Below are positions 9,386 to 37,763 of a DNA stretch of 64,000 nt, one piece after another. The notes beneath the pieces are model-generated. The model saw only the letters and a list, made by a program, of their open reading frames with translations. It did not search any database and was not told where the DNA came from. The translations under genes and the position numbers were made by a program. The stretch is from Amoebophrya sp. A120 (Eukaryota > Protista > Dinoflagellata). The first letter of the stretch is position 1; every line of letters starts with the position of its first letter. The DNA is taken from NCBI GenBank assembly GCA_905178155.1, contig CAJINV010000010.1, positions 3,430,587 to 3,494,586 on the forward strand, given 5' to 3'.

Positions 9386-12300
9386 TTACGCGCCGCCATG
9401 GTAGCCGCACTTCTCGTCCATCTTCTGTTTCTCCGCGGTTTCCAGAGCATGCTCCCCAGCCCGCGTGGTTGGGATCGACGGAGTGTTTTGGTGACCGGCG
9501 CCGCCTAAGAGGCCAGACGCACCTGAGATGATTGAACAAGCGGAGAATGCGCGTTTAGGGATTATTGCATGCAATGCCTACTGCGACTGCATACTTACAA
9601 CGGATACAACAACTACTTTGGATCTTGCACGCGCTTAGTTCTCGAACAAGCTTACCGCCGTTGGCCGCACCCATGAATTCCTGATCAAAAGCGCCGGCAT
9701 TAAAAAAACTGTCGTAGCCCGCATCCATCTGGTAACCCATGCCAGCACCCGGAGCATCTGATTTGTGGTGGTCATTTGTCGTGCGGGAAACACATCAAAA
9801 CGATAAACTTGTATTGCTTTTTTGTTTCGCTAGATGTCCTACAAAAGATAAAACTTGTCATGCAGTTGCTTCCATGCTAGTGCAGTTTGCTCATGCGTCG
9901 AAACCTAAATACAGTAAAAAGAAGTACTCAAAGCGTTCGCCATTCCCGCGGAGTAGGAGTTCTGGTAGTTCTTCCAGGACTGTATCAAACAAAAAAAAAT
10001 TTCACGATCACTCATCGACAATCTTGCAATACAAACAGCCTCTGCCATGCATGAAGATGCATCACAATCAAATCTGATACGGGATTTCTCTGGTGCTTTT
10101 GCAATACTACAAGAAAGGCCTCCAAAATTTCTCGTGCGAAAACTGCAAGTGACGAGTGATGATGACCAACTTTCTTCTGTCCATAGACTGCGAAGCACCG
10201 CTACCACGCTTGGAACTGGTATGAAAGTAAAAAACCTTTTTGCTTGTTGTGTTGTACAGAACAACTGCATCACAGGTAGAGGCAGTCAGTTCTTAGTCTA
10301 CTAATCTAGGCTATTCTTGCATCACAAGTTGCGTTGTACGTGTTCTCTCACGTAGACTATAAGCCACGCATCACAGCCCCCGCCGAACTCTGTCATGCTG
10401 ATCCGACACTACAAGCTTTCTACTTCGATTTCCGATCATACCCCGACGCGTTCGACCACTTGTTCCACTCGGCCCACTCCTCGTGACCATACCCAGCACC
10501 GTAGTTCTGATGGTTTTTTTGCATCGCAGGTTTCCTTCGTTTTGGTGAAAACAGCATGACAGAGTTTTGACACTTTTTCTTCGTTCGGGTAAGGACCATA
10601 CGCACTTGTGCTGCTGCATGACGACCTTTCTTGAAGCCAAGAACATGCTGATCATTCTATATCACAAACACAATACTATACCCTCGCAGCAGCGGCCGTC
10701 GCGGCGGAATGGTGGGCGTGCGCCGCCGCCGCGCCCATGTGGGCCGCATATCAAAAGGAAAAATCCTCCCTCCCTAGATCAAAACGGAAATTTGTGATGC
10801 AGGTTTGTGGTCACAAATCATCTTTGTCTTGCATATAAGATCATAGGAGCCATTTAACGCGTTCATGAGCAAGTCTGTCATGCGCTTTCGACTACTGCAA
10901 ACCTGTTTGCCATGCGCAATTGCTAGCCTTCTGCATACTCAAACAGGCTCAGAAAATGCCGCCAAGCACTTTCTGCACGACAAATCTGATTTGTGTACGC
11001 AAATTCAGCATCAGAGACTTCGTTGCGATATGGGGAGGGGGGATTTTTCCTTTCAATACCGCAGCCAGGTTCGCCGTGGGGTTTGCGTTGGCAAATTCGT
11101 CGTTGACCCCAAACCCGTATGGATTGCAAATACGTCTGGGTCTGGAAACTTGTGATGCAAGTCGGTCAATAACAAATGCACTGTAATGCGCCGCCAAGCA
11201 TGACAAGTTGTCTCGTGCTTCTGTGCTGCGTTTTCCGCATGAGAAACTGCGTTTTTGCATGACAGGCGAGAGAGGCTGTTTCGATGGCCCCAAGCAATAC
11301 AGATTTAAGGGCCATTCCAGATCAGCATGACAAATCTCGCAATCTTCCAGACCCAGACATATTTGCACTCCATAACCCGCCGTGATTCCCGGCGCCAGAC
11401 CCGGCGCCAAACGCAGCAGCTCCGAGGGAGTTGACGCCAGCAGATCCCTGTAACCCGCCCGCGGCAGCAGCACCCATGTTCGCCGCGGCGGCAAACTGCG
11501 CAGCGGACAGCTGCGAGGCCGCGTGGTTGGGGACTACGCCCGTGGAGCTGCCATATCCTGAGTAAAAACGTACCCACACCAGAGTCAGGATGGGGATTTT
11601 GCAACAAAAACCTAGGAGGTTTGTGAGTCACGCATGACAAGTTGCACTCTGCAGTGTAGTGCAGGTTAGCAACTGCAGCCGCATCACAAATCCATTTGCT
11701 CATCCTGTTCACAGCATCACAAATTCCAAAACACGACTGGCAATGGCTCTCATGGGGATGCGCGTTACAAGTCTTCCTGTCTTTGCAAATCTGCATTACA
11801 ACTCTGGTGTGGGTACGTTTTTACTCAGGATATGCCACCGTGCATGTTCAAAGCGTTGCCAAACGGGTTCGCGGTGTTGACCCCCGGTAAGTTGCCAAAC
11901 GGGTTCCCGTATGAAATGCAAAAGCAACGTACTAGTATGAATTGCATCACAAATTTCCCCAGCATGAAAAATAAAATTTGTAATGGGGATTTAACTTGAG
12001 AAAGAAATTTTTGAATGCATAAAAGCAATCACTACGAGTACGATACTTTTGCAATGCATATCCCGGTGTTCACCCCCGTCGCAGCACCGCTGGTCTGCGC
12101 CAACATGTTCATCATCGCGTCCAGCTGGGTCTGCTGCGCCTGCAGGTGCTGGCTAATCGCCGCGGAATTCTGCTGTCCCTGCATCTGCTGTTGCTGCTGC
12201 TGCAGAAGCAACTGCTGGTTGTTGTTTCCATTGTTGTTTCCGCCCATGTTGTTCAGGTTGTTCTGGCCGACGTTGTTCTGGCCGTTATTGTTGGCGTTGT

Positions 12301-15300
12301 TCCCGGCACCTCCCATGTTGTTCGCGTTGTTGACGTTCTGTCCATTATTGTGCTGCTGCTGATGGTTGCCGTTGACATTGTGCTGGTTCTGGTTCACGTT
12401 GGGCTGCTGGGTGTTGTTTCCGTTGTTCCCACCAGCAGTGTATCAAATGCAAAAGTGTCTGGGTCTGGAAGATTGGTAGGTTTGTCATGCAGGTTTTCCA
12501 TGACCCACGCGGTCTGCCATGCACGGCCTAGCATGGCAGGCTCTGTGAGATCTCTATCATGCCGTTCCTGCATGAGAAACTGCCTCTAAACTTGTTCAAA
12601 AGTGGACCTCTTTATTTCGTAATCATGCAACACACATTTTTCCACGATCCAGATGTAGCATGACAAGTTGCACTCTTCCAGACCCAGACATTTTTGCAAT
12701 TCATACAGTGTTCAGCCCGTTGTTTCCGCCCTGCTGCTGGTCCAAGTGCCGCACGGAGTTTCCGTTGTTGGCCCCCGAAACAGATCCTGTGCAAAAGCAT
12801 CGTACTCTTTAACTAATCGCAATCATGCAAGACAAATCTTCTTCCCAAGCGAAAGCAGCATGGTGAATTGCATCTGTCATGCTAAGGTCATTTGCCTTGC
12901 GTTTTCTACTAGTACGGTGCTTTTCCGCATGATAAAGTAGACCCATGCTGGCCCAGGGCCGCAGCCATGGCAGCGTTACTAGACGCGTGCTGACTCGACA
13001 GGTGGTGGTAGTTCGCGGCGGCCAACTATTACAGTGAAAAGTGCCCCCCACCCCTAAATTGCAAAAATTTGTGATGCGAAGTTTCCAAATGAAAACTTTT
13101 TGTCATGCATGAAAGGAGTATGAATCTTTCTGATGCAGAATGTAGGCGTGTATCGCATCGCTTGCATGACAAGTGCCGCTCTTGCTGGGGTCTTTTGCAA
13201 TACAAATTTTTGCTATTCACGATTGAAAACCCGTGATGCTGATACATGCAAGAGGGCGAATGTTTCATTTGGAAAGGTTTGCAATACAAATGCTCCCAAG
13301 TTCGGGGGTGGGGGCATTTTTCATCGTAATACCAACTGCCCGGCGTTCAGAGCCGCGGCGTTCGCGTTCAGAGCAGCTGCGTTGCGTTATAACAGTGCAC
13401 AACTCCCCCTCCCGCCCCTCATTTGTATTGCATGAACAGCAACACAAGCAACAGCAGAAAAGGGGCTTTCGCATGACAAAACTGCATGCGGATTCTAGTA
13501 CTATTTGACGTTCCAAAATTTGTCATGCTATCAGTTCCCACCATGCAAGGTGCGAATTTGGTATTTTGCATTACAAATGAGGGGGAGGGGGAGTTGTGCA
13601 CTCTCATATGCGTCCGTCCAGCGCCGCCGCGCCCGGGTTTCCCGCCATCATAGCCGCACAGCCGATCGCGGTGGCCTGCGTATCCTGTGCAAAAGTATCG
13701 CACTCGTAGTCATTGCATTTCTGCATTACAAACCTCTTTCTCAGGGTGAATCAGCATTAGAAATTAAATTTGTATATGCTAATTATTTCTAATGCACTTT
13801 ATACGTAGTACGATGCTTTTCCAATGCATACTGCGCATCGCGGAGCAGCTGGTTGATCTGCGATTCGGGCAGGGCGTTGCGCTGCTTCAAGATACAGGCC
13901 ACGTTCATCGGGTCGCCCTGCTGCGCGCAGGCCTTCATCAGGCAGGAGTAAACCGCGCGGGTGGGCAGACACTTCCAGACGAACGGCATTTGGCGGAAAA
14001 CCAAGTCGATGGCATCGTACAAGCGGTTCACCCCCGCGTACAGGCGCACCAGGATGGAAAAAGTGACGCAGGACGGAGCAATGTTGCACCGCTGCATGTC
14101 CGCGAAAACCATCAGACCTGATTTTTATAATAATGTGTAGTGAAACAGTGCTGTCAGACTTTGATTTCCTTTCACGCATCACAAGCCATTAAGTATTCTT
14201 TCTGCGTTCATCGGAACATATCATGCATGTTGACAGGTCGTTGTAGATAAACACAACAAGCTGAAAAAAAACACGACCCGTACCAGTATCAAAGTCTCCA
14301 ATCTTGGCGCAGCCATCCAACAGAGAGTTGAACATGATCTCATCGTATGGATTGCAAAAGTGTCTGGGTCTGGAAATTTGTGATGCTGGGTGGCGTATCA
14401 TGAGAAGACCACAAGTGCTGGCCCAGCATGACAAGTTTTTGAGCTTCTAGGTGTTGCCTATTCTGCATGACAAACTGCGTTTCTGCATGGCAGAAAAAGG
14501 CGGCTCTTGGGTAACCTGCATGACAGATTTAAGAGTCATGCCAGACAAGCATGACAAACATGCATTCTTCCAGACCCACACATTTTTGCATTTGATACAT
14601 CGACTGGCAAGCGGCGCATCCGGGCCTCGTTGGCGACAAGCAGGGCCTTGCGGAGGTTGCCTTCGTTGCAGAATCCCTTGACCAGGGTGGAGAAGGTGAT
14701 GATGTCCGGCATAATACCTTTATTCGATATAGTATTTTTGCTTCTATCTACGATGCGGATGCGGGACTACGCAAGACAAAAGTTGCTCAGCATGCATGCT
14801 GGATTGTCATGAATCAGAAGTGGAACAAGTAAGTAAGTAAGTAACTTAACTTTTTGATTTCATAATCCAAATCTTTGTGATGCAAAAGCCTGCATAACTA
14901 GACAACATCAGCATCATGGGTCTGTCATGATTTTCACATTACCACTCGCCTGCATCTCCTGTAGGACCATGGCGGCGACCTTCATGTTGTTGCACCGCAC
15001 AGCGACATCAATCAGGGAGTTGTAGGTCACAACGTTGCACGGCACCCGCTCCGACAGCATTTCCTATGGAAAGGAGAAGTCCCCCCGCCCCATAATGAAG
15101 CGGCACGTTTCTCAAAATTTGTGATGCTGATTTGTGGCCACAAATCCTGTCTCTCTTGCATGAGGGCAACCTCAGAGACTCCGCCACGATATGCAGGCGG
15201 TTTGCAATGCTGGAAGGCCTATAGGCTAGACCTCTAGCAAGCTAGGCCCCTACAACAAGAGGCCCCCCCTTAGGATTGCGATCTGCGTGCAGTCCTTTAC

Positions 15301-18300
15301 TGCAAGACAAATCTGATTTGTGTACTCAAATACAGCACCACAGATTTCCGTTTTGTCATGGGGAGGGGGGATTTTTCTTCTTGATATTTCCCGGTACAGC
15401 TTCATGGCACGGGCGAGGTCCTTGATCTTGGCGAAACCTGACAGAGTATGTCAACAGGTAGCTTTGCAACACAAATTTTTTCCAAAATTCTGTTTCGATG
15501 CTACGGCTCCGCATGATTGAAATTGTGATGCATGAAGACCGCTACAATCGTAAGTTATATATCAGTACCTTTGATGATGGTCGTGTACAGAACCGTGTTC
15601 TTGTGCAGGTTGGAGGACTTCATGTCTTCAAAAGTTTGGACGGCCATCTCCACGTGGTTGCACTTCACGCAGGCATCCAGCATGCAGCCGTAGGTGACCG
15701 CGTTCGGGTATCCCACAGAAAAAAGCAGGCAGGGCAGATTTGTAATGCAAAAATAAATACACAGAAAAATCTGTCATGGGCGGCCCCATAGCATGCTGTT
15801 TAGGATATGCTATGCAGACTTTTTTGTGTATTTGTTTTTGCATTACAAATGTGACCTGCCGGCTTTTTTCTGTGTGATATCGGGGGAATATCGGTCTTGC
15901 GCATCTCCTCCCACAACAGCAGAACTGAAAATTTGTATTGCAGAATCCGGATTTGAAAGAGTGGTCTCTGTTGCAGCTGGTGAAAGTGGAACAGCAACAG
16001 CATTTGATACTGAATAAACGGAACCAACGATCCTGGATGCTATTATTTGCAGAAGTTGAAAGCAATTTGTGACGCTGCAATGCAATTATGCAATGCAATA
16101 TCAAAACAACTCCTCTACCGCGATTGAAGTCCCGGAAGGTTCCGTAGGCCTTGATCAGGGTACCGTACGTGACCGCCCCCGGCCGGGCCGAGTACATGTG
16201 CCCACGCAGGTCCACCATCGTTTGTTCCATCGACTGGACGTCCCGGAGTATCAAATGCAAATATGTCTGAGTCTGGAAGAGTGTACTCAAACTTGTCATG
16301 CTGGTTTTCCATGATCCATGAGGTCTGGAATGCGGTACCTAGCATGAAAGACTCTGTGAGGTCTGTATCCTGCCTTTACTGCATGAGAAACTCCGTCCCA
16401 ACTTGGTCGAAAGTGGCCTGCTTTTGGCACTCATGCTCATGCAACACAGACTTCTGCATGATTCAGATTTAGCATGACAAGTTGCCACCTTCCAGACCCA
16501 GACGTATTTGCAGTTGATACGGAGGCGCGCGAAACCATCCAGGCACGTGTTGTACAGACCTTCTTCCGCGTCCTTGGACTTCCGGATATGCAATACAAAT
16601 CTCCCGTACATGTACAAGATGCATCACAAATTTCACCAATTTGGAGCGTGAAACTTATCATGCTAAACTAGGATCGAAGCCAAGTTTTGTCATGCAGAGA
16701 CCGCATTTGCACGTCGTGTACGGGAAATTTACTGTGGATACCGCAGGAATTTTTTCAACAGCGAAAACCCCCGGCGCAGTTTCGCGGTGCGGCTGTCGCC
16801 ATCGAGGGAGATTTTCACGAGCGCGGAGACGGACTGGTAGTCGATCTGGTAGTCGGAGGTCAGCATCTTGTCCACCCACGACCAGGCTTCGTCGACCTTC
16901 TTCCAGCGGATGGCGTGGTCCAGGTACTTTTGGTACCGCATGGCGTTCTCGTCCTGGACAACCGCGGGAGCTGCAGTGGCGGTGGTGTTCTGCTGTTGCT
17001 GCACGTTGGCCGGTTGCGCAGCCGGCTCCTCCTGCAGCTTGGTCTCGGAGGCAACTACATTTTCCACAGTTTGGTCCACCAGAGTCGGTTCCCCAGTATC
17101 AAATGCAAATGTGTTTGGGTTCTTTGGAAGAGTTGTGCCAATTAATTGTCACGCTTGGCCGACGATAAAAGAAAAGTCTGTCATGCTTGTTGCGCGGCTA
17201 CAACGTCACTTCGATTTGTCATGCAAAAAGACAATTTTTCATGCGATTAAGAACGCTACACATTGTAGCCGCTCAGATGAAAGAACTTGTCATGCGCGGC
17301 TCCGCAATACGGTCTGCCGTGTATCATTGGGACATTAGCATGACAACCTTCCAGAGGACCCAGACATATTGGATGCGGTGGATACCCCGCATCAAATGTA
17401 AAAATGTCTGGGTCTGGAAGAACGCGCGATTTGTCATGCAGCTTTTCCACGATCCATGAGGTCTGGAATGCAGGACGTAGCATGACAGATGCTGCGCGAT
17501 CTTTCTCATGCCTCTCCTGCATGAGAAACTGCCTCGCGACTTGGTCAAAACTGGACGACTTTTGGTAATCATGCAACACAGACTTTTGCATGCTTCAGAT
17601 TTAGCATGACAAGTTGCATTCTTCCAGACCCAGACATTTTTACATTTGATACCCCGTCGCCGTCAGCAAATCCGCCGCGCCGGAGTTCAGCAGGGCCGCA
17701 TTCGGATATGCTGTGCAAAAGTATCATAGTAATCTTCGCAGTCACGCATTACAAATCTCCTTCTTGAGGCGAACCCGCATCACAAGTTCCGGTTCTCATG
17801 CTGATAAAATTTGTCATGCGATTTACACTACAACGAGACAACTTTATTTGCAGCGCATATCGGACTGGTCATCACGATCTCGTTTTCTTTGTCACCGATA
17901 TGGGACTCTCAAACGTTACATTCTCAACTGTTACATGATTTGCCATGCAAATTTACCACCAAGATCGCCACGATTAAGCTGCTTCGCATAACAAATCTAC
18001 GAAGGGCTAAACAGCATCTAAATCTGTGCCAAATCTGTAATGCAAAAGGCGCAATCTTGCTCCTTTCACTTTTGCCGTTCTTGCATTACAAATTCGTGTA
18101 ACCGTTGAGAATGTAACATTAGAGAACGCCATAACCGACCGCGCCGGCTTCCATTCCCGACAGCATCTGCAGTTTCTTATGATATGCATTGCAAAAGTAT
18201 CGCACTCGTAGTAATTGCAGTCATGCATTACAAATCTCTTTCGTTAGGTAAATCCGCATTACAAATTTTATTTCTCATGCTGAGAAAATTTGTAATGCAT

Positions 18301-19659
18301 TTATACGAGTACGATACTTTTGCACAGGATATATGAGGGTGCACAACTCTCGCCCCTCCCTGTTCATGCTGTATGGCATGAACAGCAATACAAACACCAG
18401 CACACTTAGACCCTGTGCATGACAAATAACTCGAACCCCAAATGTTAAAAATTTGGAGTACTCAAGTACTGTTTGGGCAGCTTCAGAGCAATTTCTCATG
18501 CAAACAGTGCCACAAAGCAGCAACGAGATTGTGAACTTTGCATCACAATAAACACAAATCAGGGGGAGGGGGACGACTTGTGCACTCTCATATTTCTCAT
18601 TCTCGCAGCAGTCGTCCTCATTCGCATTCGCGATGTTTTTGTGGTCGGTGTCGGTGTCCGGGGTGGTGTGGGCCAGAGATTCGGTGGTTTCGGCCGACGC
18701 AGCAGAGCAGTATCAACTGTAAAAATGTCTGGGTCTGGAAGAATCCAACTTGTCATGCTGATTTTGAATTCTCAAAAAATCTGTATTGCATGAGCAGCAA
18801 AGAGAGTCCAAGTTTTGCTACACGGAAAGAGCATGTGTCAAGCGGTATAGGCATCAGGAAGCCGTCACAAAATCTGTGATGCTAGGGCATGCATCACAGA
18901 CATCAGGAGTCATGCAAAATGTGCATGACATACCTGGCAATCTTCCAGACCCAAACATTTTTACATTTGATAAGCAGGTTTGCTTCTCGATGAACTGGTT
19001 GCATTTCGTGATCGTGCCCGGCTTATGCATGGCAAAAGCATCGTACTAGTAGCAATGGCATCACAAATTTGCTGCTCAGCATGAGACGCCGAACTTGTCA
19101 TGCTGATTTAGCTCGAGAAGCAGATTTGTCATGCATGTACGACTAGGATAGTTTTGCACAGGATAGTGGTTTTTGGTCGGGGTGGTCGGGTGCAGATCCT
19201 GGTCTTGCTGCTCCATTTGCTCCACCTGCTTCTATCGCAAGAAAAAACTGTTTCACTGTGAACTTGTGATGCAGAAAATGCATCTGAGAAGTGTTTGTGT
19301 TGCTACACATGCAAGACAATGGATTTCTGGCTGTGTTTTCCCTCAGGAATCTCGCATGGCAAATTTCCTCTGTGATGTAGAGCAAACCTGTGATGCAAAA
19401 CCTGCAAAATCCTTACAGTGAAACATTTTTTTCTTACGATAGCTTCGCTACCTGGTGTATTAATTCTTGGAGTTCAGTTCCTAAGGAAGAAAGCAAATTC
19501 AGTTCCGCAAACTCTCTAGTCCCGTGGGAGAAGTGAGAGTGACAACCTCTAATGCATAATGACGCATGAGTAGAAACAAGAATTTGATACCGCAGTCTCC
19601 TCCACAGGCAGGGCGGCCACCGAGACGGCGGCCTCTTCCGGGACACCAGTTGCAGTCAT
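9386..19659 (-). CDS. Pentatricopeptide-repeat (PPR) protein with N/Q/G/A-rich C-terminal tail, about 31 introns
   Basis: Reconstructed PPR motifs PGAVTYGTLIKAYG, PNAVTYGCMLDACVK, TVLYTTIIKGFAK, NVVTYNSLIDVAVR, PDIITFSTLVKGFC, DEIMFNSLLDGCAK, PSCVTFSILVRLYA, PTRAVYSCLMKACAQ. About 22 TIR-type introns plus 9 GT-AG introns (9523-9655, 9758-9927, 10216-10441, 10507-10681, 14118-14283, 14718-14942, 15438-15568, 15925-16118, 19452-19590). Confidence 0.9.
9983..10185. mobile_element. Decayed introner
   Basis: TAT..ATA ends, weak TIR, direct repeat GACTG. Confidence 0.75.
10749..11058. mobile_element. Introner family I
   Basis: TIR TAT..AAAGGAAAAATCC..CCTCCC; direct repeat CCGCA. Confidence 0.9.
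11118..11374. mobile_element. Introner family A
   Basis: TIR with GTCTGGGTCTGGAA; direct repeat ACCCG. Confidence 0.92.
11554..11832. mobile_element. Introner family K
   Basis: Perfect TIR TATCCTGAGTAAAAACGTACCCACACCAGAGT; direct repeat TGCCA. Confidence 0.95.
11910..12060. mobile_element. Introner family B
   Basis: TIR; direct repeat TCCCG. Confidence 0.9.
12441..12705. mobile_element. Introner family A
   Basis: TIR; direct repeat CAGTG. Confidence 0.92.
12783..12934. mobile_element. Introner family B, eroded
   Basis: Left end GAT instead of TAT; flanks AAACA/AAGTA; frame restored (GST|SGANNG). Confidence 0.8.
13027..13331. mobile_element. Introner family J
   Basis: TIR TATTAC..TGAAAA.TGCCCCC; direct repeat CCAAC. 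Confidence 0.9.
13388..13608. mobile_element. Introner family F
   Basis: TIR GTGCACAACTCCCCCTCCC; direct repeat TGCGT. Confidence 0.93.
13681..13830. mobile_element. Introner family B
   Basis: TIR; direct repeat CTGCG. Confidence 0.92.
14346..14597. mobile_element. Introner family A (252-bp subfamily)
   Basis: Close copy of 2637-2888; direct repeat CATCG; splits PPR motif LPVD|EIMFNS. Confidence 0.94.
15065..15386. mobile_element. Introner family I
   Basis: TIR; direct repeat TTTCC. Confidence 0.9.
15709..15879. mobile_element. Introner family H (long hairpin)
   Basis: TIR of about 60 bp starting TATC.CACAGAAAAAAGC; direct repeat TCGGG. Confidence 0.93.
16249..16519. mobile_element. Introner family A
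   Basis: TIR; direct repeat CGGAG. Confidence 0.92.
16587..16740. mobile_element. Introner family G
   Basis: TIR core AAAT.TCCCGTACA; flanks CCGGA/CCGCA. Confidence 0.85.
17097..17651. mobile_element. Two family A introners in tandem at one target site (17097-17384 and 17390-17651)
   Basis: Three target copies CCCAG / CCCCG / CCCCG; the elements are separated by only 5 bp. Confidence 0.88.
17707..17859. mobile_element. Introner family B
   Basis: Direct repeat TCGGA. Confidence 0.87.
17899..18133. mobile_element. Introner family C-like
   Basis: TIR core GTTACATTCTCAAC.GTTACA; direct repeat ACCGA. Confidence 0.9.
18178..18592. mobile_element. Family F introner with a family B introner (18183-18331) nested in its terminus
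   Basis: Outer direct repeat TTTCT; inner direct repeat TATGA. Confidence 0.9.
18711..18972. mobile_element. Introner family A
   Basis: TIR; direct repeat AGCAG. Confidence 0.92.
19024..19165. mobile_element. Introner family B, direct repeat lost
   Basis: TIR present; flanks CGGCT/GTGGT; frame restored by removing element plus 5 nt. Confidence 0.8.
19233..19441. mobile_element. Introner family E
   Basis: Homologous to 757-974; direct repeat GCTTC. Confidence 0.92.
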
Positions 19660-19972
19660 CTTGCTCTTATGCAAAATAAAAACTTCCGGGTCATCGGGAT
19701 CATTCGTGACGCGAGTGATTTGAAGGACAGCGACAGCGCGATCTGTGATGCATACACGCGATCTGTGATGCATTACAAGGAAAAATCATTCGCGTTCCTT
19801 CTCCAAGAGAACCAGCACCCAGATTGATATTTTCATTTCCATACGTTATGGTCTGGTCTCCGATCTGCGATGTGTGCCTCTTAGCCGTTTTTGGTCAAGA
19901 GAATTCCCGTCCGTGCTGGTCTGTAGCTTGTCCAATTTCCTTCCAGAATCGGACTACACCACGCTCTTCCTC

Positions 19973-20186
19973 TATCCCACGAAAAAAGTGTTACAGTTAC
20001 ACATTTGTTGTCAATTCAGCAATACAAATTTTCTCTGCATGAGAGGGAGAACTTGTAATGCAGAAATCCTACGGGAAAACACCTAAGAAACGAGGCTTCT
20101 ATGCGTATCCGGCATGACAGAGCTCGTCTGTCTTGCTTGGCCTGCAATATTACAATGTGTAACTGTAACACTTTTTTCTTGCGATA
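19973..20186. mobile_element. Introner family D, probably in the PPR gene 5' UTR
   Basis: TIR core GAAAAAAGTGTTACAGTTACAC; direct repeat TCCTC. Confidence 0.88.
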
Positions 20187-22255
20187 TCCTCTGAAAAACA
20201 GAAGAAGAATCCTTCTCAGGAGAGAGGTATGGAAGTCGAAAAACTTTATTTCGGAGTGTCATGGAAGTTTGTCATGCAGACTGATCTTATCAGCGTAACT
20301 GCTCATGCAGTCTTCGCCTTGCAGGAGTGGATCCTCGGATGCGTGTATGCATTATGTTTTGCTTCATCTTGACATAATGATAATTCTGCATGACAAACAG
20401 TTACCTCCGAAAATAAATAGTGTTGCATTCTGGATAAGACAAGTCTGCTACTCTCTCTCTCGTTTCGTCCTTCTCTGTAATATCGTGCATTTAGCAAATT
20501 GGTTTTTTGATAATAAATAGCTGTTTCTCATGCATAGACGCAATGGGAGGGGGGTAAAATTGTCATGCATCGTCCAATACCTCCTCGTGCGATTGTTCTT
20601 GTAGAGTAATTAAGATAACTTTTTAGTCGAAGACAAAACAGGAGTAAAGTGTAAGCCAGTGGCTTTTCAAAGTGAATATTGTCATTATGTTTATTTTCAT
20701 TGTGTGCGAGTGCCGTAAATAGTGGGGGCACAACATGTTTTTTTTTGCTTGTTTGTCGTCAGATACTTTTTACTTCTACTTGATACAAACTGGATAAGTA
20801 CTTATTCATAGGCGTCGCTTAAGTACGTCTCGGAAATGCAAAAATGGTGAATGAAAATTGATCTTGTTCTCTTTAGGTTTGATAATATCAGCAGGCTGTC
20901 ACAAAAATCCTGTAGCAGTTCTGATGTTGAGTCTGTGCTTCGATATCTATGGGTATGGGGTATCGCACTTATGGTACCAAGTGTTAAGTGCAAAGCCAAA
21001 GGTAACTTGAAAATGTGACTACGGTCGTGAGAGGTCGTTCTTGCACTTGCAGGCTAATAGGATATGTGTAATCGTGTGGTCAGAAGTTTTTTATTAAGAC
21101 GGTGGTGGTGGTGCAGCTAAAGTAATGCACTATGTTTGGACCGTTCTTGTGCTAGGTTTTCACTTTTCGCTCTCTCTCGACAGGATAGTGTTCTACACAG
21201 GTTGAAGTTGATGCTGTGATGGCGCAATACCACACACCATGATTTTATTGTTGCGAGGGAGCTGCAACTACACAGTGAAATCAAACAAACACACAGGGAA
21301 CATCCGCGAAAAGAAACAACAAACGCGATAGGTTCTCCGTGGCGCAAGAACCTGAAGGTCCTCTGATGTCGGCCCTTGCTTGCTCGACAATGAGCGGGCG
21401 GACGTCCTCGCATGGGCGTCGTGAATAGTAAGTACGCCATGCAAAATCTTCATGCTGATAGACAGCAGCATGTGCAGTTGGCCCAGAGAGTGGTAGACCT
21501 ACTTGTGAAACAACGAAACCTCACAATGCGCCAGCGGCGTGGCAGACACAGGAACATGTCCAGAGACGAAAAAGAACAAACAGCACGGGGCTCGGTGGTC
21601 CGGTTCTTGTCATGGGTGTTTTGATATTTGAATTTGTGTGACTTTTGATGAATGTTTCTGAGGGCATGGTAGAAAATGGTCTTCTACTTGATGCATTTCA
21701 TTTTCATCCCACTTATTTCTATACGTGATTTTTCTACAGATGAGTTCTTGCGAATCACGTACGAGGTGCTTTGATTTATTTGATCTCTTTGACACTGTCA
21801 AAATCAAAAGGGAGAGAGTACTGTCCGTTGCGTAGCACTTACACGGTTTCCCGTCGGAACGGAAGTGTAATTCTGTTTCTTGCGGAACACTTCGCGGAAA
21901 GGATTCACGTGGCACCACGTAGGCCGGGTCTCTTCAGACGAAACACACGACCCGCGGGCTGCATGGTGAATTATCAACATGGAACAAAATACGTCCTCGA
22001 CCCATGTTGAATTATGTTGACGGATTTTCATCAATGTCGAGATAATTCGTCGCTGAAACTACATCATCGCTTGCCTGTGGCTGTGTCTGTGTGTCGCTAT
22101 ATGTTTCGCTAATTGTACTCACGTCATGAAAACGAGTTATTCCCGGTTGAGGTGCAAGAAGAAGTACGAGTCTATGCATCGTGACCCATCTTCATCTCGT
22201 CTTCACGCCTTCGGCACAAGATCAAAGAACTGAAACTAAACTAATTCCATGCTAC

Positions 22256-29100: not shown

Positions 29101-32100
29101 ACTTGCATTCATACGAATACGATACTTTTGCGCAGCATACCCCGGATTGCCCCGCTCGCTCGCCTCCTCGGGCGCCGCCCATTGGCAGAAGGACCGGTAC
29201 GCGTGAAACGGGTACTGGTTCAGCAACGTGGCCACCATGTAGAGTACCAGGCACAGGGTAAAAATTTTGCCCTCGGCCGCTTCCGGGTTTTGGCACACGC
29301 TGGACAGTATGGATTGTAAAAAAGTCTGGGTCCTCTCCTGGAAACTTGTGATGCTGGGTGGCGTATCATGAAGAGGCCACAAATGCTGGCTCAGCATGGC
29401 AAGTTTCTGAGCTTGCTTCTAGGTTTTGCCTATTCTGCATGACAAACTGCGTTTCTGCATGACAGCAAAATGGGGCTCTTGGGAAACGTGCATGACAGAT
29501 TTAAGAGTCATGCCAGACTAGCACGAGGAATCTCGCAATCTCCCAGACCCAGACATTTTTGCATTTGATAGACAGCGTGCCGCTCCTCAGAAACCCTTTA
29601 GGCAGCTGCACCTCCTCGACCGGTCTTTCCTCGAAGCCCGGTGGCATAAAAACTGAGGTGTCGTCTTGCTTCTCCACTCCATCTCCGACTCCTTGGCTTA
29701 CAACAACTTCGCCCAGCAGCGAGGTGCCTTTCATCGTACTAGCATCATCTTTTGCGGTTGTTGATGATGCACCACCTGACTCGGCCGTCTGAACAACTTC
29801 CAGGTGGTGACCAAAAGTAGACTCCGCACGAGGACCTCCTTCGCGTTTCTTCAAAAGATCCTCCAGTTTATTCGGCGCTTTCGTTCTCTTCTTTGCGCGG
29901 CGGCCTGGCTCCTCAGTTCTTGTTTCCTCGTCAACATCGCTTGCACCACTCTGCAGGGCGGAGTCCGGAGCGTTCATACTCAGCACTGGTAAATCTTCGT
30001 CATCGACATGCGGCTCGTTTGTCGATTCACCCAGAAAGACACTGCCTTGACTGAAGCTCCCCTCCAGTCTGCTGCTGGTGCTCGTCTCGATGTCGTCGTG
30101 ATCGACGTCCACTGCAGCCTCACTCCCCTCTCCTCGTCTGCTCGCCGTTTTGATGTTCATCATATTTGAAGAAAGGTGACCTTGACCTCCACCCCGCCTG
30201 CTCTTGCGCACCAGCAGTTTCCGCACGATTGTTTCGGGAAAAAACACGAGCTTCCAGGGAAGCAAAGTCCCGAAAACCACGGCTGTATAACCCGCGACCA
30301 AGAGCAAGAACCCCAGCACCCCGTCCGTCCGCGTGGAACCGACGAAGGCGGACTATGGGAGCGTCAGGCTTGAAGTCAACGAAGTTGTTGAAATGATTTG
30401 CCATGCATAAAATGCAAGGCATGAAGTGCCTGTCTTGCCGGGATGGCAAGTGAGGCAGATTGTGAGCCTATCTAGGGTTTGGAATAGAGCTGCTAAAGGA
30501 GCATGACAGAAGCAGTATTCTGTGCCCAAACAGCATGACAAATTGGATCCGGGTGCTCCGAAAATTTGTCATGCGCCGCTTGATAAGTGGGCTTCCAACT
30601 GGTATCGGCTTTATGCATGACAAACTATTTCAACTCTGACGATTTCGATCCTGACACCCCCATACGGACAGCAGAAACCGGATCAGGCTGAGCGTGACCG
30701 CCCCGCACCACCGCACTCGCTGCAGCGCGTCGTGGAAAAAGTCGTGGTGCTGGTCCAGTTTGTCCTTCAACTGCGCGTATGGATTGCAAAAATGTCTGGG
30801 TCTGGAAACTTGTAATGCTAAAAGTGAATGGCACACGCACTGCAATACGCAGCCACGCATGACAAATTTTTTGGCTCCTATCCCAAAGAAAAAAGCCGAC
30901 AGGTCAGAAAAAAAATAATTAAATAATAATTGTTATCGTCAACAATAAAAGCAAAACAAAACAACAAAAAAAATTGCCGCCATACCATGCGGATTAGCTT
31001 CAGGACAGATCAGCAATCCGCGCGAATCATGGTGGGGCTGCTATTGTCAACAATAAAAGCAAAACAAAACAACAAGAATAAACTGCCGCCATACCATTCG
31101 GATTAGCTTCAGGACAGATCAGCAACCCGCGCGAATCAGGGCGGGACGGCGATCGCCCGCTTTTTTTATTTTTGCGACGAATTTCGCCCATTCGCGCCAT
31201 ACCGTGCGGGCTGGGTTTCGTAGGGGGTTGCCGGTTTCGCCAATCCGCACGCCACGGCGCCCGCAGTCGGTTTTGCGGCTTTTTGCAGATTTTCCATGTT
31301 CGCGCCATAGCGTGCGGGCTGGCTATCTGGCGAAGCTGCCGGCTTCGCGAATCCGCACGGCACGGCGGTCGCAGTTAGTTTTTTAAATTTTGGCGAGTTT
31401 TCTTTGTTTCGCGCCATACCGTGCGGGCTGGGCTTCGTACGGGGTTGCCGGCTTCGCCAATCCGCACGGCACGGCGTCCGCCGTCGGTTTTGCGACTTTT
31501 TGCAAATTTTTGCTGTTCGCGCCATAGCGTGCGGGCTGGCTTTCTGGCGAAGCTGCCGGCTTCGCAAATCCGCATGGCGAGGCGGCCGCGGTTAGTTTTG
31601 TGAATTTTGGCGATTTTTTTCCTTTCGCGCCATACCGTGCGGGCTGGGCTTCATAAGAGGTCGCCGGCTTCGCCAATCCGCACGGCACGGCGCCCGCAGT
31701 CGGTTTTGGGACTTTTGGCGAATTTTCTTTGTTCGCGCCATACCGTGCTGCTGGCTTTCTGGCGAAGCTGCCGGCTTCGCGAATCCGCACGGCACGGCGG
31801 CCGCAATTAATTTTGTAAATTTTGTCGGGCTTGTTCCTTTCGCGCCATACCGTGCGGGCTGGCCTTCGGGCGAAGTTGCCGGCTTCGCGCATCCGCATGG
31901 AACGGCGGCCGCAATTAGTTTTGCGAATTTTGGCGAGTTTTTTGCCTTCACGCCATACCGTGCGGGCTGGCGGTCGCAAGAGGGTGCCGGCGTCGCGAAT
32001 CCGCACGGCACGGCGATCGCAATTATCGCTTCAAAATAGGAAGGCAGGAGCTTGGAAACCGTCGAAGGCTTTGCCAGCTTTGCGAAAGTTCCCGAATGTT

Positions 32101-35100
32101 CGGAGTCGCCGGATTCAGAGGCGGCGAGGCGTCAAACCCTCGCCAAGCTTTTCAACATTTGGGAATGCCAAAAATGCGACCCCCTCCTCTATCTGCGGAA
32201 GCTGGCGCACTTAAAGCAAATTGCTCCCGCTTCTGGTAATTTTTGCCGAGTTCGTCCGCGGATACTTTCGAAGGCTCGGAATCGCTTCAAAATAGGCAGG
32301 CAGGAGCCTGGGAGCTGTCGGAGGCTTTGCCAGCTTTGCGAATATTCCCGAATATTCGGAATCGCCGGAATCAGAGGCGGCGAGACGTCAAACCCTCGCC
32401 AAGTTTTTCAACGCTTGGGAATGCCAAAAATGCGACCCCCGCCTCTATCTGCGGAAACTGGCATCCTTAAAGTAAGTGGCTTCCTCTTCTTCTGGAAACT
32501 TTTGCCCGCCGAGTGTGTCCGCGGATCCTTTCGAATATTCGGAATCGCTTCAAAATAGGCAGGCAGGAGTTTGGAAATTGTCGAAGGTTTTGCCAGCTTT
32601 TCGAATGTTCTCGAATCCTCGGAATCGCCGGAATCAGAGGCGGCGAGGCTTCAAATCCTTGCCAAGTTTTTCAACAATTGGGAATGCCAAAAATGCGACC
32701 CCCGCCTCTATCTGCGGAGGCTGACATACTCAAAGCAAATTACTTCCTCTGCTGGGAATTTTTGCCGAGTTCGTCCGCGGATACTTTCGAATATTCGGAA
32801 TCGCTTCAAAATAGGCAGGCAGGAGTTTGGAAACTGTCGAAGGTTTTGCCAGCTTTTCGAATATTCTCGAATATTCGGAATCGCCGGAATCAGAGGCGGC
32901 GAGACTTCAAATCCTTGCCAAGTTTTTCAACAATTGGGAATGCCAAAAGTGCGACCCCCGCCTCTATCTGCGGAGGCTGACATACTCAAAGCAAATTACT
33001 TCCTCTGCTGGGAATTTTTGCCGAGTTCGTCCGCGGATACTTTCGAATATTCGGAATCGCTTCAAAATAGGCAGGCAGGAGTTTGGAAACTGTCGAAGGT
33101 TTTGCCAGCTTTTCGAATATTCTCGAATATTCGGAATCGCCGGAATCAGAGGCGGCGAGACTTCAAATCCTTGCCAAGTTTTTCAACAATTGGGAATGCC
33201 AAAAATGCGACCCCCGCCTCTATCTGCGGAGGCTGACATACTCAAAGCAAATTACTTCCTCTGCTGGGAATTTTTGCCGAGTTCGTCCGCGGATACTTTC
33301 GAATATTCGGAATCGCTTCAAAATAGGCAGGCAGGAGTTTGGAAACTGTCGAAGGTTTTGCCAGCTTTTCGAATATTCTCGAATATTCGGAATCGCCGGA
33401 ATCAGAGGCGGCGAGACTTCAAATCCTTGCCAAGTTTTTCAACAATTGGGAATGCCAAAAATGCGACCCCCGCCTCTATCTGCGGAGGCTGACATACTCA
33501 AAGCAAATTACTTCCTCTGCTGGGAATTTTTGCCGAGTTCGTCCGCGGATACTTTCGAATATTCGGAATCGCTTCAAAATAGGCAGGCAGGAGTTTGGAA
33601 ACTGTCGAAGGTTTTGCCAGCTTTTCGAATATTCTCGAATATTCGGAATCGCCGGAATCAGAGGCGGCGAGACTTCAAATCCTTGCCAAGTTTTTCAACA
33701 ATTGGGAATGCCAAAAATGCGACCCCCGCCTCTATCTGCGGAGGCTGACATACTCAAAGCAAATTACTTCCTCTGCTGGGAATTTTTGCCGAGTTCGTCC
33801 GCGGATACTTTCGAATATTCGGAATCGCTTCAAAATAGGCAGGCAGGAGTTTGGAAACTGTCGAAGGTTTTGCCAGCTTTTCGAATATTCTCGAATATTC
33901 GGAATCGCCGGAATCAGAGGCGGCGAGACTTCAAATCCTTGCCAAGTTTTTCAACAATTGGGAATGCCAAAAATGCGACCCCCGCCTCTATCTGCGGAGG
34001 CTGACATACTCAAAGCAAATTACTTCCTCTGCTGGGAATTTTTGCCGAGTTCGTCCGCGGATACTTTCGAATATTCGGAATCGCTTCAAAATAGGCAGGC
34101 AGGAGTTTGGAAACTGTCGAAGGTTTTGCCAGCTTTTCGAATATTCTCGAATATTCGGAATCGCCGGAATCAGAGGCGGCGAGACTTCAAATCCTTGCCA
34201 AGTTTTTCAACAATTGGGAATGCCAAAAATGCGACCCCCGCCTCTATCTGCGGAGGCTGACATACTCAAAGCAAATTACTTCCTCTGCTGGGAATTTTTG
34301 CCGAGTTCGTCCGCGGATACTTTCGAATATTCGGAATCGCTTCAAAATAGGCAGGCAGGAGTTTGGAAACTGTCGAAGGTTTTGCCAGCTTTTCGAATAT
34401 TCTCGAATATTCGGAATCGCCGGAATCAGAGGCGGCGAGACTTCAAATCCTTGCCAAGTTTTTCAACAATTGGGAATGCCAAAAATGCGACCCCCGCCTC
34501 TATCTGCGGAGGCTGACATACTCAAAGCAAATTACTTCCTCTGCTGGGAATTTTTGCCGAGTTCGTCCGCGGATACTTTCGAATATTCGGAATCGCTTCA
34601 AAATAGGCAGGCAGGAGTTTGGAAACTGTCGAAGGTTTTGCCAGCTTTTCGAATATTCTCGAATATTCGGAATCGCCGGAATCAGAGGCGGCGAGACTTC
34701 AAATCCTTGCCAAGTTTTTCAACAATTGGGAATGCCAAAAATGCGACCCCCGCCTCTATCTGCGGAGGCTGACATACTCAAAGCAAATTACTTCCTCTGC
34801 TGGGAATTTTTGCCGAGTTCGTCCGCGGATACTTTCGAATATTCGGAATCGCTTCAAAATAGGCAGGCAGGAGTTTGGAAACTGTCGAAGGTTTTGCCAG
34901 CTTTTCGAATATTCTCGAATATTCGGAATCGCCGGAATCAGAGGCGGCGAGACTTCAAATCCTTGCCAAGTTTTTCAACAATTGGGAATGCCAAAAATGC
35001 GACCCCCGCCTCTATCTGCGGAGGCTGACATACTCAAAGCAAATTACTTCCTCTGCTGGGAATTTTTGCCGAGTTCGTCCGCGGATACTTTCGAATATTC

Positions 35101-37763
35101 GGAATCGCTTCAAAATAGGCAGGCAGGAGTTTGGAAACTGTCGAAGGTTTTGCCAGCTTTTCGAATATTCTCGAATATTCGGAATCGCCGGAATCAGAGG
35201 CGGCGAGACTTCAAATCCTTGCCAAGTTTTTCAACAATTGGGAATGCCAAAAATGCGACCCCCGCCTCTATCTGCGGAGGCTGACATACTCAAAGCAAAT
35301 TACTTCCTCTGCTGGGAATTTTTGCCGAGTTCGTCCGCGGATACTTTCGAATATTCGGAATCGCTTCAAAATAGGCAGGCAGGAGTTTGGAAACTGTCGA
35401 AGGTTTTGCCAGCTTTTCGAATATTCTCGAATATTCGGAATCGCCGGAATCAGAGGCGGCGAGACTTCAAATCCTTGCCAAGTTTTTCAACAATTGGGAA
35501 TGCCAAAAATGCGCCCCCCGCCTCTATCTGCGGAGACTGACATACTCAAAGCAACTTCCTTCCTCTCCTGGAAATTTTTGCCGAGTTCGTCCGCGGATAC
35601 TTTCGAATATTCGGAATCGCCCGAATCAGAGGCGGCGAGGCTTCAAATCCTTGCCAAGTTTTCCAACGCTTGGGACTGCCAGAAATGGTATGGCGCGAAA
35701 GAAAAAACCCGCCAAAATTTACAAAACTAATTGCGGCCGCCGTGCCGCGCGGATTCGCGAAGCCGGCAGCTTCACCAGAAAGCCATCCCGCACGCTATGG
35801 CGCGAACAAAGAAAATCCGCCAAAAGTCGCAAAACCGACTGCGGGCGCCGTGCCGTGCGGATTGACGAAGCCGGCAAACTCTTACGAAGCCCAGCCCGCA
35901 TGGTGTGGCGCGAAAGGAAAAAACCCGCCAAAATTTACGAAAGTAATTGCGGCCGCCGTGCCGTGCGGATTTGCGAAGCCGGCAGCTTCGCCAGAAAGCC
36001 AGCCCGCGCGGTATGGCGCGAACAAAGGAAATTCGCCAAAAGCCGCAAAACCGACTGCCGGCGCCGTGCCGTGCGGATTGGCGAGGCCGGCAACCTCTTA
36101 CGAAGCCCGGCCCGCACGGTAAAGCGCAAAAGGAAAAACTCGCGAAAATTTACAAAAATAATTGCGGCCGCCGTGCCGTGCGGATTCGCGAAGCCGGCAG
36201 CGTCGCCAGAAAGCCAGCCCGCACGGTATGGCGCGAACGTAGGAAATTCGCCAAAAGTCGCAAAGCCGACTGCGGGCGCCGTGCCATGCGGTTTGGCGAA
36301 TCCGGCAAACTCTTACGAAGCCCAGCCCGCACGGTATGACGCGAAGCAAAAAAATTCGCCAAAATTTGCAAAACTAATTGCGACCGCCGTGCCGTGCGGA
36401 TTCGCGAAGCCGGCAGCTTCGCCAGAAAGCCAGCCCGAACGCTATGGCGCGAACGTAAAAAATTTGAAAAAAATCGCGAGACCGACTGCGGGCGCCGTGC
36501 CGTGCGGATTGGCGAAGCCGGCAGCCCCCTTCGAACCCCAGCCCGCACGGCATGGCGCGAATAAGCGAAATTCGCCACAAAAATAAAAAAGGCGGGCGAT
36601 CACCGTCCCGCCGTGACTCGCGCCGATTGCTGATCTGTCCTGAAGCTAATCCGCATGGTATGGCGGCAATTTTTTTTGTGGTTTTGTTTTGCTTTTATTG
36701 TTGACAATAACAATTATCATTTAATTATTTTTTTTCTGACCTGTCGGCTTTTTTCTTTGGGATAGCTCCCATGTCTTACGTATTCCGCATGGCAAACTGC
36801 GTTTTTCCATGACAGGTAAGCGGGCCTTTTCGTGCCTATGCAACACAGATTCTCGAGACATGCCAGACAAGCATGACAGACTTGCATTCTTCCAGAGCCA
36901 GACGCTTTTGCATTTGATAGCGAATTCTCGACCTGCAGATGGTGCAGGTTTTCCGCAAACTCCTCCATTTTCCGCTCCAAATACCGAACTCGGTCCTCGA
37001 GGTGTTGTGGTGGAGCAGGAGAATTTGTCCTAGAAGTAGAACGGGCTTCTACTCCATCACCGTGGTCCTCCGCTGGCAGGGTCGTCGCCCACCTGCTCGT
37101 CGGAAACGATGGATCTTCAACATGCGGCTCCGAGTAGAAGAAGTCGGGAGATGTTGAAGCGGAGTTGTCCTCCTGGCGCAGTGGTCCCGTTCCACTTCTC
37201 TGCAGGACCGAGGAGCTTCTAATGGAGCCAGCAACTACATGCGATTCCGGTGTCTCCTCAGAATAGAAGTACTCGACGTCCCCTTGATGATGATCTTCGT
37301 CGTGTGTTCCTTCTTTATCGCCACTTGAAGATGGCAAGTTGTCGAAACCCCCATTTTCGCCTACATCGAGGAAAACCAGAGAACTACTACCGGTAGTAGA
37401 GCCTCGTGCAGAATGACGATGCAGCTGGGGCGATGAATTCCTCTTGCTGCTCTCATGCACAACATCATCATGCTCAGCCACGTGAACAGCTGCCGTGGTG
37501 GTGGCTGCGGCGACGAGGAAAATGATCCCAGGCGTGAAGGAGATCATGGGCGTAGTAGTTGTTTTAGTTTTTCTCATGCTTGAAGAAACGTTGCGGGTAC
37601 TTACATTACGATTACACCAAATATCATCCTCCGGGCCGTTTGTACGACCTGCTCCGCTCCATTTGTAGCTCTTTGGTGGAAACAAAACCGTTGAAAATTC
37701 CTGTTCGACGTCGACCTTTCGCTTTCGTGACCTCGAGAAGAAAAAGTCGCGCCGGAACGGCAT
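26175..37763 (-). CDS. Multi-pass membrane protein of unknown family, 9 TIR introns (one is 6.1 kb); may extend to 25880
   Basis: Continuous frame VENS|QLKDKL...LLS|AFVGST...GTL|SSVCQN...NPG|LPKL...CL|RAIW...TDS|SSIDQ...NVP|LTYL...VV|DLFD...VVS|GVGLSF; several hydrophobic segments. Confidence 0.78.
27137..27399. mobile_element. Introner family A
   Basis: TIR; direct repeat AGACA. Confidence 0.92.
27539..27797. mobile_element. Introner family A
   Basis: TIR; direct repeat CCACC. Confidence 0.92.
27843..28108. mobile_element. Introner family A, close relative of 27539-27797
   Basis: TIR; flanks GGGCA/CGGCA. Confidence 0.9.
28287..28559. mobile_element. Introner family A
   Basis: TIR; flanks ACCAG/ACGAA. 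Confidence 0.87.
28624..28944. mobile_element. Introner family I
   Basis: TIR; direct repeat CGCAG. Confidence 0.92.
28988..29139. mobile_element. Introner family B
   Basis: TIR; direct repeat CCCCG. Confidence 0.92.
29308..29570. mobile_element. Introner family A
   Basis: TIR; direct repeat GACAG. Confidence 0.92.
30354..30664. mobile_element. Introner family L
   Basis: TIR TATGGG.G.GTCAGG; direct repeat CGGAC. Confidence 0.88.
31170..32025. repeat. Left-arm subrepeats of about 107 bp (alternating, about 215-bp dimer)
   Basis: Recurrent TTCGCGCCATACCGTGCGGGCTGG...AATCCGCACGGCACGGCG. Confidence 0.88.
32025..35690. repeat. 256-bp tandem satellite, about 14 copies
   Basis: Near-identical ORFs recur every 256 bp from 32571 to 35387; the edge copies are diverged. 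Confidence 0.96.
35690..36585. repeat. Right-arm subrepeats, inverted relative to the left arm
   Basis: Recurrent CGCCGTGCCGTGCGGATT...CCAGCCCGCACGGTATGGCGCGAA. Confidence 0.88.

Follow-up and report, generated by a model that had tools for sequence, protein, structure and literature searches.

The window, a 64,000-nt stretch of Amoebophrya sp. A120 DNA, carries on its minus strand a gene (9389..19215, bounds approximate) for a 999-aa pentatricopeptide-repeat protein. Pfam PPR_2 scored above the cut-off in three of the five exon pieces scanned, and the exon adjoining the introner pair described below (16742..17092) matched P0001, a 999-aa Amoebophrya sp. A120 protein, at 100%. The host gene is conserved, with 71% identity over 533 aa to an Amoebophrya A25 protein; the same exon was 74% identical to the A25 protein, and these two proteins were the hits obtained from 301 candidates. 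The A25 orthologue is unconserved at the junction with the pair, so that the frame at this point cannot be tested by protein conservation. A Pfam match of this exon to HlyE (E = 0.011) lay under the cut-off and was dismissed as chance. Elsewhere in the gene, exons at 13337-13387 and 11838-11909 encode short repeated peptides in frame that are missing from P0001, which may reflect either an annotation artefact or extra micro-introns.

Across the window we identified 64 elements of 140-360 nt with TAT...ATA terminal inverted repeats (TIRs) and 5-nt direct repeats, of which 25 fall in the region of the host gene (9500-20300). A first pass detected 58 of these, excising them exposed one more, and five were added by hand (the element E1 described below and those at 12783, 19024, 28287, and 61070, the last being doubtful with three flank mismatches); detection extended to a length of 450 nt and was subject to score thresholds. 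The 5-nt flanks were identical in 50 of the 64 elements, far beyond chance, and TAT was present at 124 of 128 element ends. The four deviant ends belong to 12783-12934 and to the ends at 17390, 38884, and 41107. In the likely gene directions, the two deviant 3' ends keep AT with a change in the last A, and the two deviant 5' ends keep the first T; speculatively, given n = 4, base +2 (T) of the intron and an A located 7 nt ahead of the 3' cut may be what is recognized, in the manner of a donor and of a branch point at a fixed distance. Element lengths clustered at approximately 150, 170, 200-220, 250-265, 280-290, and 305-322 nt. A 6.1-kb stretch (30778-36919, flanks GCGCG/GCGAA) is bounded by the same TIR family and contains inverted 108-bp arrays together with roughly 14 tandem copies of a 256-bp unit; it may represent a very large family member.

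Two of the elements, here called E1 and E2, stand side by side in the host gene at 17092-17656. The sequence-only reading had described the plus strand as CCCAG-[17097-17384]-CCCCG-[17390-17651]-CCCCG, and every coordinate and letter proved exact. In transcript sense, the order is exon-CGGGG-[E2]-CGGGG-[E1]-CTGGG-exon, all features being on the minus strand. The 50-nt upstream exon (17653..17702, PNAALLNSGAADLLTAT, residues 94-111 of P0001) is delimited by the contig joints 17701→17860 and 17091→17652 in the splice register given below. It runs into the first target-site copy (17652..17656, CGGGG in transcript sense), the first four nucleotides of which are exonic, with intron E2 beginning at the fifth; RNA-like contigs keep the second base of this copy. 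E2 itself (17390..17651) is a young 262-nt TIR introner that is transcribed first, has a 30-bp terminal stem, and carries an A-to-G change in its last base (CAT on the plus strand). The middle target-site copy (17385..17389, CCCCG on the plus strand) contributes four nucleotides to the end of intron E2 and one to the beginning of intron E1, and is absent from spliced contigs. E1 (17097..17384) is an old 288-nt TIR introner of another subfamily, whose 5' (inner) TIR lacks the A-tract at positions 11-13. The first four nucleotides of the third target-site copy (17092..17096, CTGGG in transcript sense) are intronic and the fifth starts the next exon; the sole mismatch among the three copies lies in this intronic part. 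The downstream exon (16742..17092, 351 nt) reads GEPTLVDQ...KKFL and is matched by contig pieces at 16741-17091 with 0 differences.

We compared contigs and reads from eight of twelve sequencing runs (X1 and X5-X11, with X2, X3, X4, and X12 left out). Runs X5-X8, comprising two samples of one study, are taken as RNA by inference and not by record; two ordinary GT-AG introns are likewise missing from their contigs. The X5 and X8 contigs join 17091→17652, skipping 560 nt with three ambiguous letters, and those of X6 and X7 place 123 letters between 18593 and 17091, equal to exons of 39, 34, and 50 nt, such that the record coordinates imply the same full skip. Hence, all four RNA-like contig runs support an in-frame skip of the full 560 nt. 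No part of the region was retained and no other junction was used in any of these runs, the two outcomes that the sequence-only reading had named as counting against it. Its claim that the frame is restored by dropping both elements was likewise borne out, since taking out 560 nt yields ...ADLLTATG|EPTLVDQ on the minus strand. All four alternatives, i.e., keeping the middle 5 nt, E1, E2, or both elements, meet a stop before EPTLVDQ, and joining the gene by its RNA joints gave 368 stop-free codons across 12 pieces.

Contigs drop rare forms, and this bears on two further observations. No joint with a single element removed occurred among the 15 of 21 contig joints listed, and depth in the E1 interior was 0 in at least one bin for X6, X7, and X8 and 0.61 for X5, which for that reason is no evidence against intermediates. 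The 15 joints listed from X1 among TIRs of other loci give no spacer lengths. Run X9 covers repeat parts only, and the raw-read runs X10 and X11 contain no reads on exons, only 90-95% matches to repeats. Approximately 100 raw RNA reads of X10 align to 17565-17651 at 90-95% identity and combine an E2-like end with foreign flanks; these derive from a family member retained in the transcript of another locus or strain.

The splice register was pinned by a neighboring stand-alone introner (19024..19165, minus strand) whose flanks differ at three of five places. In both X6 and X7, a piece of the contig begins at 19167 and is separated from 18705 by 47 letters, and P0001 reads KNQG at this point; these piece boundaries place the cut between the fourth and fifth flank base. 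The intron therefore runs from 1 nt before the 5' TAT to 4 nt after the 3' ATA, a register (-1/+4) that is pinned at this one intron and compatible at two more. The -1/+4 register proposed by the sequence-only reading is compatible with the focal pair, where the mRNA (ACG GGG GAA) draws its second base from the upstream target copy, as it also does at 16587-16740. This register does consume the middle 5 bp as had been claimed, but the observation is not specific, as any fixed register would arithmetically do so. Together with the 560-nt skip in the RNA-like contigs, the register leaves a middle exon of 0 nt, located between 17386 and 17385. In the same register, E2 is a GT..GG intron of 267 nt, E1 a GT..GG intron of 293 nt, and the fused unit a GT..GG intron of 560 nt; no GT..AG reading fits within the three ambiguous letters of the joint. 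When all 25 introners of this gene were read in -1/+4 (one, 12783, with a wrong 5' bound), one ended in AG and nine began with GT.

That the arrangement arose by something other than double insertion, i.e., by tandem duplication, by transposition of a pre-formed dimer moving as a unit, or through an assembly error, appears extremely improbable. E1 and E2 are only 58% identical, which rules out tandem duplication, and the middle 5 nt equal the flank rather than a foreign site; tandem duplication and a dimer were rejected, as was a 5-nt micro-exon, whose retention shifts the frame. Tandem repeats are common trouble spots for assembly, but one contig of the DNA-like run X1 crosses E1, the middle repeat, and E2 with 0 differences (16750-17417, from the exon through the first 28 nt of E2), though with just these 28 letters in E2. 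A second X1 contig spans the far end of E2 (17630-17765). X1 is possibly the source sample of the window and is not independent of the assembly. The RNA skip of exactly 560 nt further argues against an origin other than double insertion. As far as can be told, the pair is not an assembly slip.

The two elements differ in apparent age. E2 has identical flanks, a copy elsewhere in the window that is 92% identical (56311-56572), and TIRs with one difference in their first 33 positions. The closest element to E1 in the window is at most 65% identical, the TIR core being common to the family, and its far flank has drifted at one intronic base. Summed X1 contig depth, which serves as a rough guide only, was about 130,000 or more for E2, 142-170 for the interior of E1, and 46 for the exon. 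Given that E2 has identical flanks, a 92% copy, and high X1 depth and that E1 shows none of these, we infer that E1 inserted first and E2 second. E1 would have inserted long ago, and E2 would later have entered the transcript-upstream target copy of E1 and duplicated that copy; it is most likely that E2 landed in E1's target copy. Since the gene contains 25 introners, a second hit requires no special mechanism.

We next consider the ends of the elements, as the sequence-only reading had held that the inner ends are altered and the outer ends intact. Fifty ends were ranked with a 14-nt matrix built from 46 other ends of the family. The inner end of E1 was the lowest of the 50 (-3.5; next 12.4) and that of E2 sixth to seventh lowest (15.2), whereas both outer ends scored above the median (21.7 and 23.0). 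At positions 11-13, the 50 ends read AAA (45), AAT (2), GAA (1), or TAA (1), and ATC was found only at the E1 inner end; the A-tract after seven variable bases is accordingly present at the other three ends of the pair. TAT is present at three of the four ends and CAT at one, the E2 inner end being one of just two among 128 with a changed terminal T. The claim thus stands for the inner ends and for the outer scores, but the outer TIR of E1 is intact in its first 14 nt only and then differs from its partner. The CAT end had been considered as proof of a dead inner end and was rejected as such: in RNA, a U.G pair is predicted to close the stem, and a change of the last base (ATC) is likewise present in the stand-alone element 12783-12934, which is nevertheless absent from the annotated protein.

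For the removal of the pair, the sequence-only reading had allowed for both recursive splicing and fusion into one intron. Because removal of E2 first, removal of E1 first, and removal in one step all produce the same mRNA, mature RNA cannot discriminate between these routes. Our interpretation is that two introners share one 5-base target with no exon between them and are probably removed sequentially, the younger upstream one first. In this scheme, E2, being transcribed first, would fold its own 30-bp stem and be cut out as G-TAT...ATG-CGGG. Its removal would rebuild the old exon/E1 junction exactly, and E1 would then be excised as before; the reverse order would lead to the same product. 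The lean towards two steps comes from the fold of the pair, the strength of the E2 stem, the splicing of elements with weaker stems, and a donor match at E1. The predicted minimum free energy fold consists of two separate hairpins, with 24.7 expected pairs between E2's own TIRs and 18.9 between those of E1, compared to 4.8 for the outer pair. The predicted E2 duplex, at -47.7 kcal/mol, is the third strongest of 62. Two stand-alone elements with duplexes weaker than that of E1 (17707-17859 and 19024-19165) are spliced, and the inner donor of E1 is identical over its first 8 nt to the donor in use at 16587-16740.

A fused 560-nt intron is the less probable reading, yet one that deserves consideration. 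Here, the unit G-TAT...ATA-CTGG would be removed with one cut at the outer ends, as in the skipping of a 0-nt exon, and the inner ends would be decaying. The ranking of the inner and outer ends is what relaxed constraint on the inner ends predicts, the first 15 nt are predicted to pair better in the outer pair than between E1's own ends (-12.9 vs -3.7), and both the contigs and the annotated protein display the full skip only. However, the E2 stem is predicted to outcompete the outer pair (-27.0), and three stand-alone ends carry small insertions near positions 12-17 too. E2 also looks too young for several changes to have accumulated at the E1 inner end since its arrival; its single TIR difference implies that the distortion of E1 may predate E2.

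Such an earlier distortion could also mean that the 5' end of E1 was already poor and that selection retained E2 as the source of a fresh one. The bottom rank of the E1 inner end among the 50 despite the apparent youth of E2, together with the conservation of the host gene relative to A25, would fit this rescue, but stand-alone elements with equally weak stems are spliced and we consider it unlikely. Overall, the data lean slightly, though not decisively, towards two-step removal, which we hold to be somewhat better than an even prospect, with one-step removal clearly behind; both routes may run.

A second stacked pair lies approximately 500 bp upstream in the same gene (18173-18597, minus strand). 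Excising the inner 149-nt introner (18183..18331) revealed its outer, older partner (18178..18592, flanks TTTCT/TTTCT); the target that the inner element duplicated consists of the last 5 nt of the partner's 3' TIR. In X5 and X8, contigs join 18172→18593, skipping 420 nt. This pair is also predicted to form two hairpins, with the outermost 3' ATA left unpaired as long as the inner element is present, and it is still removed cleanly. If stems define the cuts, the inner introner would have to go first.

The sequence-only reading had spoken of repeat targeting of one site. Two independent introners do occupy one target site, but a preference over chance was not supported: under sequential random insertion, the expected number of exact re-hits is 0.07 across the window and, within this gene, 0.06-0.14, compared to one seen. 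In simulations over different target spaces, at least one exact re-hit had a chance of 0.06-0.13, and two or more hits that were exact or near an end had a chance of 0.04-0.20. By a rough estimate of N^2/L, near 8 exact cases would arise by chance from about 30,000 elements in an assembly assumed to measure roughly 100 Mb. At such values, and with many windows scanned, one re-hit needs no targeting. It is nonetheless possible, as a tentative alternative, that the transposase favors existing introner ends, through TIR binding or accessible linker DNA. Each of the two stacked insertions detected lies close to the end of an existing element, at distances of 0 and 5 nt, and the gap ranking next in shortness measures 19 nt. 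Within the detection limits of 450 nt and the score thresholds, none of the 64 elements was nested in the interior of another, where about eight are expected under uniform insertion. A linker bias is reported for other introners (PMC9860276), and double insertion is common for P-elements according to McGurk and Barbash (10.1101/158386). Against this stand the simulated re-hit probabilities under chance and the fact that the window was picked from many, and the missing nests may reflect selection, exon preference, or detection limits. The end hits in the two pairs are suggestive; they come from one gene and are open to selection and detection bias. A scan of metagenomes for TIR-N(0-30)-TIR returned one locus (L001:1272-1802), where two introners of the same TIR family are separated by a 21-nt gap corresponding to a 16-nt exon. 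Guided insertion would concern the origin of the pairs and can be combined with either splicing route.

The pair is real at the level of RNA contigs and is of value for testing the splicing mechanism. Amoebophrya has tens of thousands of non-canonical introns and no detected U1 snRNA (PMC7789003). Stacked pairs are natural experiments on how such introns are removed: if the hairpin is the recognition unit, one-element intermediates must exist, whereas machinery that reads the outermost ends only does not require them. The locus indicates that introners can pile up at one codon with the protein unchanged, and its neighboring intron supplies a fixed splice register for a border that the published figure leaves undefined. 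A wider model, which we rate as rather unlikely, would be a transposon-built, AG-independent form of recursive splicing that operates at dozens to hundreds of sites in the genome. Introners would be drawn to the ends of earlier ones, stack into compound introns, and be removed one hairpin at a time, the cuts being placed by distance from the stem (1 nt before, 4 nt after) rather than read from the sequence. If the pair instead arose from a random re-hit and is spliced out in one step, it is a curiosity.

Several known systems resemble the pair in part. Introners of Amoebophrya A120 are described as having TIRs that start from TAT, an A-tract at positions 11-13, a mean length of about 240 nt, and hairpins, with direct repeats of 3-5 nt over the exon/intron borders and non-canonical splice sites (Farhat et al., 2021, PMC7789003); a role of the hairpins in defining the splice sites is put forward there as a hypothesis and not a result. 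The pair shares TAT ends, 5-nt repeats (identical for E2, one mismatch for E1), membership of a repeated family, and non-GT-AG removal from mRNA, and by these sequence features the window elements belong to the class of A120 introners. The difference is that the legend of Fig. 3 of that article gives the border position as unknown, whereas one intron here pins it at -1/+4. Stacked or nested elements are not described in the portions of PMC7789003 available to us, and the words 'nested' and 'tandem' have no hits in the text of its supplement, figures aside. Genes of Amoebophrya can carry tens of introners (PMC12130899), and 'nested', 'tandem', and 'recursive' gave no match in the available text of that article; PMC11282704 and PMC9860276 offer general introner background. 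In a literature search with subscription papers and supplementary figures outside its scope, we found no paper on stacked Amoebophrya introners.

Closer parallels for the stacking itself come from other organisms. Nested or merged introner elements are mentioned for Micromonas (Verhelst et al., 2013, PMC3879977), in comparison to which the A120 pair has a triplicated target site and non-canonical ends. Dimers of P-elements and hobo consist of two elements parted by a single copy of the target-site duplication (McGurk and Barbash, 10.1101/158386). Similarly, one target copy lies between E2 and E1, and the series CCCAG/CCCCG/CCCCG shows it to equal the flanks but for one mismatch. However, those dimers are of the same family and involve no splicing, whereas the A120 pair unites two subfamilies in a coding exon and both members are removed from the RNA.

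With respect to splicing, the zero-nucleotide exons of Drosophila ratchet points have AG/GT junctions within large introns and are proven by intermediates and lariats (10.1101/006163). If its inner sites are used, the focal pair is similar in that its 3' and 5' sites abut and the first step recreates a donor. It differs in having a GG/GT junction, a unit of 560 nt, and a transposon origin, with no one-element joint among the contig joints listed. With its GG/GT junction the pair is not a classical ratchet point, but it may work like one. Fungal stwintrons and other complex introns can be excised by two successive steps, with a single step as an alternative in L. starkeyi, and have canonical U2 signals (PMC7138796). 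The second pair (18178-18592), nested in the 3' terminus of its outer element, follows the same logic. The introners of this gene depart from canonical U2 signals, with one AG end and nine GT starts among 25, and the A120 elements have TIRs and target duplications. Moreover, two-step removal has been demonstrated in stwintrons, whereas the elements of the focal pair abut and either order gives the same product.
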